A stretch of DNA of 64,000 nucleotides. Origin: Eledone cirrhosa. Taxonomy: Eukaryota. The notes beneath the pieces are model-generated. The model searched no databases. It had not been told where the DNA came from and worked only from the letters and a program-made list of their open reading frames with translations. Positions 58,222 to 61,149 of this stretch are shown one piece after another; positions within the stretch are counted from its first letter, which is position 1; every line of letters starts with the position of its first letter. The position numbers were made by a program, and so were the translations under genes. Location of the stretch: the NCBI GenBank assembly GCA_964016885.1, contig OZ024745.1, positions 107,446,001 to 107,510,000 on the forward strand, in the 5' to 3' direction.

Positions 58222-58527
58222 TATATATATATATATATATATATATATATATATATATATATATATATATATATATATATATATATATATATATATATAT
58301 AAATATATATATATATATATACACACACATATATATACATATATATATATATATATATATATATATATATATATATAAATATATATATATATATATATAT
58401 ATACACACACATATATATACATATATATATATATATATATATATATATATATATACATTATGAAGAGAGAAGAAACATTTAGATATAATTAGTAATAAAA
58501 TGTATCATACATAAACTGCTCCTAAAT

Positions 58528-58617
58528 TCCTCGACTACGTAGTTTCGTGGCATAAACAAAAACAATATATCATAAAGATATAGAGTCCTTGCGAGGTCTG
58601 CCGACTTATCAAGAGGA
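58528..58617 (-). ncRNA. Hammerhead ribozyme U3-A8, copy 1 of the 595-bp array
   Basis: Reverse complement of 60045-60134. Confidence 0.8.
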
Positions 58618-59122
58618 TACCTCATTTTACTAGTCTCAAGAACGCGTCTACACGACGTGAGAAAGAATCCCAAAAGGCGGAGGGGGAGATAGTCACGCGA
58701 TATAACGGTCGAGAAACAGAGCTAAGCCTCTTATAACCCCGAAGAAAATACCACGGTGGCGGAGGGGGTATTTATATCGAGGCCGTAGAAGAGGTGGTGA
58801 AGAAGGCGAGAAGTATGAGTAATGGAAGCTTTCCAGCTGTCCCCACACTTCAAAGATTGCTCGACCAGAGGGAGTTATTAACAATATATTTAGAAACACA
58901 CAGATACATGCGGACACACACATATATACATGAATGCATCCGCACCCAACTGTGAGTTAAGGGTGCCAACTTCACCGATGTTGCTCAATGAATGACTGGG
59001 ACAGACCAATTCAGTTGAACTAGACTGAACCAGTATCAGAGTTAAAAATACATTATGAAGAGAGAAGAAACATTTAGTTATAATTAGTAATAAAATGTAT
59101 CATACCTAAACTGCTCCTAAAT

Positions 59123-59212
59123 TCCTCGACTACGTAGTTTCGTGGCATAAACAAAAACAATATATCATAAAGATATAGAGTCCTTGCGAGGTCTGCCGAC
59201 TTATCAAGAGGA
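59123..59212 (-). ncRNA. Hammerhead ribozyme U3-A8, copy 2 of the 595-bp array
   Basis: Reverse complement of 60045-60134, 595 bp from copy 1. Confidence 0.8.
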
Positions 59213-60044
59213 TACCTCATTTTACTAGTCTCAAGAACGCGTCTACACGACGTGAGAAAGAATCCCAAAAGGCGGAGGGGGAGATAGTCACGCGATATAA
59301 CGGTCGAGAAACAGAGCTAAGCCTCTTATAACCCCGAAGAAAATACCACGGAGGCGGAGGGGGTATTTATATCGAGGCCGTAGAAGAGGTGGTGAAGAAG
59401 GCGAGAAGTATGAGTAATGGAAGCTTTCCAGCTGTCCCCACACTTCAAAGATTGCTCGACCAGAGGGAGTTATTAACAATATATTTAGAAACACACAGAT
59501 ACATGCGGACACACACATATATACATGAATGCATCCGCACCCAACTGTGAGTTAAGGTATGATACATTTTATTACTAATTATATCTAAATGTTTCTTCTC
59601 TCTTCATAATGTATTTTTAACTCTGATACTGGTTCAGTCTAGTTCAACTGAATTGGTCTGTCCCAGTCATTCATTGAGCAACATCGGTGAAGTTGGCACC
59701 CTTAACTCACAGTTGGGTGCGGATGCATTCATGTATATATGTGTGTGTCCGCATGTATCTGTGTGTTTCTAAATATATTGTTAATAACTCCCTCTGGTCG
59801 AGCAATCTTTGAAGTGTGGGGACAGCTGGAAAGCTTCCATTACTCATACTTCTCGCCTTCTTCACCACCTCTTCTACGGCCTCGATATAAATACCCCCTC
59901 CGCCTCCGTGGTATTTTCTTCGGGGTTATAAGAGGCTTAGCTCTGTTTCTCGACCGTTATATCGCGTGACTATCTCCCCCTCCGCCTTTTGGGATTCTTT
60001 CTCACGTCGTGTAGACGCGTTCTTGAGACTAGTAAAATGAGGTA

Positions 60045-60134
60045 TCCTCTTGATAAGTCGGCAGACCTCGCAAGGACTCTATATCTTTATGATATATTGT
60101 TTTTGTTTATGCCACGAAACTACGTAGTCGAGGA
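60045..60134 (+). ncRNA. Hammerhead ribozyme with U3-A8 core and extended stem II loop
   Basis: TCCTC TTGATAA GT-c-GGCA..TGCC-AC GAAAC TACGTA GTC GAGGA. Confidence 0.8.
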
Positions 60135-61149
60135 ATTTAGGAGCAGTTTAGGTATGATACATTTTATTACTAATTATAACTAAATGTTTCTTCTCTCTTC
60201 ATAATGTATTTTTAACTCTGATACTGGTTCAGTCTAGTTCAACTGAATTGGTCTGTCCCAGTCATTCATTGAGCAACATCGGTGAAGTTGGCACCCTTAA
60301 CTCACAGTTGGGTGCGGATGCATTCATGTATATATGTGTGTGTCCGCATGTATCTGTGTGTTTCTAAATATATTATATATATATATATATATATATATAT
60401 ATATATATATATATATATATATATATATATATATGTATATATATATATGCATATATATATATATGTATGTATATATATATACATATATATATATATATAC
60501 ATACACACACACACACACATATATATATATATATATATATATATATATATATATATATATACATACTCACAAATATATACATATAAAAACCTACATACAC
60601 ACACACACACACATATATATATATATATATATATATATATATATATATATATATATATATATATATATACATATAATATATACATACATACGCACATACA
60701 TACATGTAAACATATATACACATGTATACGCAAATATATATATATTTATATATATATATATATATATATATATATATATATAAACATATACATACACCCA
60801 CATACACATATACGTTAATACAAATATACGCACGTGCACACAAACGTACGCATACAATCGTCCGGCCACTCATACAAATACGTAACATATACACTCATAA
60901 ATATACACAAATACAGACACACATATATACAGTATTAAGATGAAATACGCTCTACATGCGGAAAGAGCAGATAGGTAAGAAGTAATTACATGACCATAGT
61001 GTCGTGTTTCGGGTTGAGACGGGGTAGGGGTAGGGTGAGAAGGAGGTGGAGTGGGTATTTTTTTCACGAGTGGGGTTTTAAAAAAAAAAGTGAATCTTTT
61101 TTAGCCATATGGCATTAACACTGGCTTAAGGTATTTGAAAGTTGCAAAG

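Follow-up and report, generated by a model that had tools for sequence, protein, structure and literature searches.

Metazoan non-LTR retrozymes are dispersed, non-coding elements of low GC that consist of tandem units, each with one type I hammerhead, and they occur in genomes that also hold Penelope-like elements (PLEs), as described in PMC7229834 and in the preprint 10.64898/2026.07.22.740005. The unit measures 170-400 nt in the former source and 51-972 bp in the latter, and the preprint also argues for a link between retrozymes and PLEs. That a circular template gives rise to tandem cDNA was already proposed (PMC4209133; PMC7229834), and circular retrozyme templates have hitherto been such a proposal.

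EN+ PLEs (Penelope/Poseidon, Neptune, Nematis and Naiad) form partial tandems with an inverted, 5'-truncated copy, often have a tail at one end only and are biased to (TA)n targets (PMC8557442, PMC3846280). They carry minimal hammerheads, including the U3-A8 variant known from Schistosoma PLEs (PMC4209133). Both PMC8557442 and PMC3846280 describe as unresolved how the tandem-plus-inverted insertions, with their one-sided tails, come about. In vitro, the purified protein of the anole Poseidon element PAc, predicted to be a dimer, cuts and extends both strands of an AT-rich target from two internal start sites, between which the tail lies (Frangieh 2024, PMC11167929).

We describe here an insertion in Eledone cirrhosa that shares these features of retrozymes and of EN+ PLEs and, in the reading proposed below, those of PAc. 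Youth, abundance and polymorphism make its family suitable for testing both the origin of the insertion shape and the circular template.

Two opposed arms of 595-nt units in an (AT)n tract

The window analyzed is a 64,000-nt stretch of E. cirrhosa (OZ024745.1:107,446,001-107,510,000, forward strand, of GCA_964016885.1), and the coordinates below are positions in this window. The array at 58453-60374 is a single (AT)n insertion of a retroelement that is young and non-coding and bears hammerheads. It lies between a left (AT)n tract (58222..58452) and a right (AT)n-rich tract (60375..60670), and a target-site duplication is unreadable because both flanks are (AT)n. The left arm (58453..59557, minus strand) is 1105 nt or about 1.86 units long, and its 3' end at 58453 is the site that we call S1. 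The right arm (59555..60374, plus strand) is about 820 nt or 1.38 units long, with its 3' end, S2, at 60373-60374. Both arms are 5'-truncated, and they meet head to head at 59555..59557, where 3 nt are shared as microhomology (or 8 nt, one of them mismatched, when counted from 59550). The segment of 165 nt between S1 (60209 in this arm) and S2, that is, the tail, occupies 60210..60374 on the plus strand and contains two predicted hairpins.

The period of the array is 595 nt and its copies are 99.1-100% identical; the inner inverted repeat (58883-59557 and 59700-60374) has 100% identity over 675 nt. The original prediction of near-identical 595-bp units in two opposed arms was thus confirmed. 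The same is true of its view that the units hold no credible ORF. No stop-to-stop frame of at least 100 aa is present inside 58489-60272, and the longest Met-started frame in a sister array has 75 aa. The two variant forms and their order were also found as predicted, with form B at 59078 (minus strand) and form A at 58483 in the left arm, and form A at 59584 and form B at 60179 (plus strand) in the right arm. Two further single variants, at 58757 (minus strand) and 58511, had not been mentioned there.

Manual inspection showed one type I U3-A8 hammerhead motif per full unit, as had been predicted. The motifs lie at 58528..58617 (minus strand, starting at 58617; predicted cut between 58533 and 58532), at 59123..59212 (minus strand, starting at 59212; predicted cut between 59128 and 59127) and at 60045..60134 (plus strand, starting at 60045; predicted cut between 60129 and 60130). 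All three share the U3...A8 core and a stem I of 5 bp; stem II is long and stem III palindromic. The call rests on this inspection and on the U3-A8 variant of PMC4209133, because the Rfam hammerhead families gave 0 matches at gathering score in the window. The core and the stems are intact and conserved, and self-cleavage is predicted. The predicted cofold of two motif copies (-62.5 kcal/mol) is compared with 2 x -24.4 kcal/mol for the single copies, so the motif is predicted to fold better as a dimer. The predicted fold of the whole unit has a z of -6.9.

The family consists of several thousand young, dispersed copies. A 23-mer of the hammerhead motif has 5,950 exact matches in the 3.0-Gb genome (0 for the reversed control), and one variant form of it has 760 further matches. 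We analyzed 56 stretches from the first 100 of the 5,950 matches, 40 from end-pattern lists (one new place excluded), 29 from the 760 matches of the variant form and 28 best-hit or variant loci. After removal of duplicates and of two insertions cut by a locus edge, the final sample comprised 153 insertions, mainly from contig C1 and with arms long enough to include the ribozyme over-represented. A type I hammerhead is present in every tandem unit of these insertions, at spacings of mostly 591 or 595 nt, and neither protein coding nor LTR-type structure was found in the units. The unit also lacks the ORF with reverse transcriptase and GIY-YIG that an autonomous EN+ PLE carries. We therefore class the element as, almost certainly, a non-autonomous PLE, that is, a non-LTR retrozyme. 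The retrozyme-like class given in the original prediction was right, with tandem hammerhead units, no coding, no LTR-type structure and many dispersed copies as in non-LTR retrozymes.

No piece bridging the central junction of the 58453-60374 locus was found among the public contigs listed, which gives no verdict on the assembly either way. The lack of a bridge would fit a tandem and inverted structure produced by misassembly. However, the same architecture occurs with different junctions in 88 two-arm insertions, the units keep private variants, and both the S1 and the S2 ends are seen in public contigs. We consider an artefact virtually out of the question.

Several side observations concern the family and the window. 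The 595-nt unit also appears, with up to about 99% identity where aligned, in public runs labelled as two other organisms (X4 and X6). At L043 (C1:19.62 Mb), an entire two-arm insertion and its flank are duplicated 2.55 kb away. In the window, the pattern CTGANGA...GAAA has 19 matches vs 2.6 expected. Further head-to-head insertions lie at 9426-9752, 23643-24033 and 51662-52554; they contain hammerhead-like cores, and a single arm of each carries additional sequence. A different partial tandem with a period of about 618 nt lies between (AT)n tracts at 56529-57380 (overlap 94% identical), and an inverted repeat with perfect arms of 173 nt lies between microsatellites at 54320-55387. LINE-type remnants (weak RVT_1 match) and a fragment of a Pif1 helicase 2B domain occupy 27083-31481 and 37319-38131. 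A bacterial promoter scan was at chance level and is not relevant to the element.

Two fixed 3' ends and their pairing

The original prediction had mentioned neither the two fixed 3' ends nor the pairing of one of each. Throughout the family, the 3' ends of the arms fall at two sites 165 nt apart, S1 and S2 (58453 and 60374 at the present locus), and the 5' truncation is scattered. Among the 153 insertions, 82 of the 83 two-arm insertions with both ends typed combine S1 with S2. That is, the 88 two-arm insertions comprise these 82, one with S1 at both ends (L097) and five with one atypical end. One-arm copies ended at S1 in 35 cases, at S2 in 29 and elsewhere in 1. The typed arm ends run into (AT)n in 230 of 235 cases. 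Genome-wide, ends running into (AT)n numbered 1,293 and 1,038 for the two sites on the forward strand, to which these counts were restricted, reverse-strand counts being inflated by overlapping matches; from them we estimate a total of roughly 2,500-3,500 insertions. In two-arm insertions the longer arm can be either one of the pair, and the overlap between the arms is 0-11 nt long for 52 of the 64 simple pairs. Pairing within the tail persists in diverged copies, in which 4 of 49 base pairs had changed on both sides (11 sequences). Fixed 3' ends, variable 5' truncation, partial tandems, an inverted 5' copy, a tail at one end and a microsatellite target are all traits like those of PLEs.

Two autonomous PLE families of the same genome obey a pairing rule of this type. 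One of them, which we take to be Neptune-like from a linker motif, is represented at L210:5255-10000 and L199:1-1264 and at L214, with a U3-A8 hammerhead, a 409-aa upstream frame, a reverse transcriptase and a GIY-YIG; the reverse transcriptase frame of the L210 copy is broken. In this family the rule held in 9 of 9 typed pairs and in one full-length copy. In the other, a young family with a 758-aa protein, it held in 2 of 2 complete copies (11 stretches). A decayed member of the 758-aa family with an inverted pLTR piece lies beside the locus (61104-62748, minus strand) and has an RT-like region and, C-terminally, a GIY-YIG-like region; the 758-aa PLE gave no matching Pfam match, and a protein search with this family returned 43,289 first-look candidates. 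We rejected this neighbor as the partner of the element, as it has no homology to the unit.

The Neptune-like family has the U3-A8 core and the 7-nt S2 end motif in common with the unit, and no homology of the unit to the pLTR of an autonomous PLE was found in the fetched loci. Because the likeness consists of the core and this motif, with no detectable homology, the Neptune-like PLE is a candidate enzyme donor that we regard as doubtful. The stem III pattern outside the family context led to family copies or to unrelated sequence in the 30 of 65 matches that were read. L048 was considered as a chimera of two RNAs with the Neptune-like family and was rejected; it is a small Neptune-like insertion abutting an arm.

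Some details of the junctions should be recorded separately. In 10 of 77 simple pairs (L036, L136, L145, L031, L087, L133, L160, L010, L177 and L198), an offset of about +160 nt, which is near to the length of the tail, separates the 5' ends of the two arms. A cluster at this offset was suggested by 8 of 59 pairs within 12 nt (shuffle p=0.007) and was not confirmed by new loci (only 2 of 18). In L090 (2883-2987), L063 and L020, short alternating bits of both arms stand at the junction and resemble the templated insertions of end-joining repair.

From the one-of-each rule we think it quite likely that both target strands are primed, each at its own site. An explanation of the kind proposed for PLEs in PMC3846280 and PMC8557442 is that the target primes a single arm, that fold-back or self-priming, perhaps with an antisense template, yields its partner, and that resolution by the endonuclease leaves the tail. 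In its favor, exactly coincident 5' ends occur in two pairs, L065 and L072 are exact palindromes at the junction, and L090 shows a templated shuffle there. However, fold-back cannot yield a far longer arm in both directions, yet either arm can be the longer one, and one-arm copies use S1 and S2 about equally. Cross-arm pairs that are mirror partners show no greater likeness than the rest, and mirror-copy conversion was not evident family-wide (mismatches of 0.19% vs 0.16%). Moreover, fold-back needs an antisense template, and the A>G polarity described below points to a sense one. We therefore judge fold-back quite improbable and retain the priming of both target strands.

The template: variant phasing, the cut site and mutation polarity

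In the original prediction, the order A>B>A was explained by reverse transcription around a circular dimer or along a donor of three or more units. The phasing of variants over the family gave a different result. Sixty-one rare variants were fixed in every copy within a locus, of which 31 span both arms and 18 are in at least three copies, and one haplotype runs throughout arrays of up to nine units. Sequence divergence within arms was 0.29% and that across arms 0.24%, compared with 3.3% between loci. Because the closest other locus, at a median distance of 0.34%, is nearly as near as the units of one locus, the case rests on the rare shared variants and not on overall identity. Since arrays are homogeneous family-wide, the template copied repeatedly would be a monomer and not a dimer; each lineage would pass through a single unit, which is then repeatedly copied. 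The order A>B>A is an exception and not the usual mode of the family.

A variant in only part of the copies was found at about 7 of the 67 loci with three-fold cover. These non-homogeneous loci are the window locus, L087, L088, L147, L149, L162 and L165; L139, L186 and L018 were set aside from the count as probable recurrent or end effects. Form B has 5 genome matches, 2 at the window locus and 3 in other subfamilies, and the 58757 variant has 4, of which those outside the window locus are likewise in other subfamilies and never accompany B. An A-B-A donor is therefore absent from the assembly, and no donor with B or with the A-B-A order was found there.

The original model made general, with a circular dimer or an A-B-A donor as the usual template, draws on the fact that all markers of the window locus fit a two-unit period, with L149 and L162 in the same register, and on the minor circular dimers that form in vitro (PMC7229834). 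Against it, none of the 14 arms passed four or more times carries alternating variants, a donor with B and its linked variant was not found, and the remaining cases of partial sharing are adjacent runs. As a general mode it is highly improbable. A dimeric template at the window locus alone, with which the lack of general mirror-copy conversion also agrees, is possible, and we rate it as somewhat doubtful. For some non-homogeneous loci a misread modified base or a later duplication of units could fit as well; all three of the clean cases of partial sharing concern a T, and a modified U misread on some passes is a speculative reading of them. Thus, of the original model, the cyclic template is still the best reading, and the A>B>A route to it is not supported.

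Long, uncut read-through transcripts of donors might also serve as templates, with unequal crossing-over after insertion making the donors long and uniform. Uncleaved RNA is the main substrate in vitro (PMC11167929), and local tandem amplification is favored in the preprint 10.64898/2026.07.22.740005. In addition, the variants of L088, L147 and L165 are common to adjacent units only. However, each of several sub-lineages possesses uniform arms of its own, 4-5 units long, and the 31 rare variants fixed across opposed arms also speak against read-through. The single-copy variants (n=115) recur in another locus in 6 cases, and they reach sibling loci at the same arm and cycle in only 1. Finally, arrays copied in this way could only become shorter, since their 3' ends are fixed and their 5' truncation is random. 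Read-through is improbable in our estimation, and repeated copying of one monomer is preferred.

The 331 listed crossings of the predicted ribozyme cut site all stay in register, free of insertions or deletions at the cut. In the sampled insertions, 2 stops fell within 2 nt of the cut (1.95 expected) and 5' ends did not pile up there; the stop rate was 1.3-1.8 per kb over the first three turns. Genome-wide, a foreign base pair stood just before the cut site in 25 matches vs 5 at one control position, for which a different filter was used. Four of the 25 are probably internal variants, and the excess, counted from matches and not from fetched loci, is less than 1% of about 6,700 motifs. This excess hints weakly at the existence of cut linear ends.

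An enzyme that jumps exactly from the 5' end of a linear cut monomer to its own 3' end would mimic a circle and predict the same homogeneity. The small genome-wide excess at the cut site agrees with such jumps, and the haplotype switches at L147 and L149 could be jumps between molecules. End-to-end template jumps are usually imprecise, however, and the 331 listed crossings show neither gain nor loss of a base at the cut, with a stop rate that is not raised in the sample. We consider such jumping very improbable. Of the templates that combine continuity with a single unit, the closed monomer is the simplest, and it is probably the true one.

The polarity of mutations bears on which strand is copied. 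In 107 young insertions, polarity was assigned by column majority. Among the 131 A positions, 24 have an inherited A>G variant, or 23 when a site whose polarity is probably reversed is left out; the corresponding numbers are 10 for T>C among 212 T (p=2e-4 against A>G) and 7 for C>T among 131 C (p=0.003). A 5' G was depleted at the A>G sites (1/24 vs 28/131, p=0.015), and ADAR avoids a 5' G. Private variants showed no A>G bias (11 vs 25), and neither a 3' G nor pairing was enriched at the A>G sites. The sense-strand excess of A>G favors a sense RNA template, and we lean slightly toward A-to-I editing as its cause. At L066, three A>G changes within 16 nt are present in both copies, like an edit cluster.

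A proposed cycle and its relation to known systems

Taken together, we think it fairly probable that a borrowed Penelope-type enzyme copied one RNA of 595 nt, likely circular, from S1 and S2 at once. The cycle may run as follows. Tandem units would be transcribed and cut by their hammerheads, probably as dimers, and a host ligase would close the monomer into a circle, as has been reported for other retrozymes. A PLE protein with reverse transcriptase and GIY-YIG, probably a dimer, would then cut both strands of (AT)n, the target seen in the insertions. S1 would be the priming site for one target strand, and S2, which lies 165 nt further 3', that for the opposite strand, giving the observed pairing of ends; a one-arm copy would result when only one primer is extended. 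Each reverse transcriptase would circle the same monomer for about 0.7 kb on average and 4.9 turns at most, passing the cut without a scar, which is the pattern recorded in the arms. Joining of the cDNA ends through the microhomologies of 0-11 nt observed at the junctions, presumably by repair, would leave head-to-head arms with the tail on one side. A-to-I edits of the sense RNA would finally be written into new copies.

Some points speak against this proposal, namely the non-homogeneous loci, about 7 of 67 and including the window locus, the S1+S1 insertion L097 and the two pairs with coincident 5' ends. The full cycle, in which a protein dimer grips a ribozyme-made circle at two sites, two rolling-circle reverse transcriptions on both (AT)n strands produce the tandems, the inverted arm and the one-sided tail, and host A-to-I editing is a main source of heritable change, is offered tentatively, as a possibility falling somewhat short of even chances. 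If true, it is a cycle not yet shown for any element. The 595-nt unit, its two start sites, the (AT)n target and the autonomous PLEs of the same genome provide defined substrates for in vitro work.

Comparing the family with metazoan non-LTR retrozymes, the unit of 595 nt is longer than those of PMC7229834 and within the range of the preprint 10.64898/2026.07.22.740005. Circles were shown by experiment by Cervera and de la Pena 2020 (PMC7229834), whereas here the circle is inferred from genome sequence. We did not find head-to-head arms, two fixed ends or variant phasing in the text consulted of PMC7229834, in whose main text the word "inverted" occurs 0 times, or in that of the preprint. The tail of EN+ PLEs is 30-40 bp long (PMC8557442, PMC3846280), compared with 165 nt in the present family, which has no ORF.

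The anole PAc differs in that no strand difference in start site was seen and that hammerhead cleavage was found dispensable, uncleaved RNA being preferred in vitro; the main text of that article does not tie the start sites to inverted arms and uses "circular" 0 times (PMC11167929).

In LINE-1 twin priming, both target strands prime and a 5' inversion is joined by microhomology, with a second primer site that is variable and lies upstream. In the present family, by contrast, both sites are fixed, either works alone, and both arms can exceed the unit length.

The pairing rule, the phasing evidence for a monomer and the editing imprint were not found in the literature searched, which included few subscription papers and did not cover older work on Penelope. 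In conclusion, the architecture of tandem, inverted arm and one-sided tail and the class of the element were already known, and the genomic evidence for the pairing and for the monomer template may be new. To these systems the family adds a near-absolute rule of end pairing, a monomer bottleneck in the phasing and a strand-polarized bias that favors a sense RNA template.
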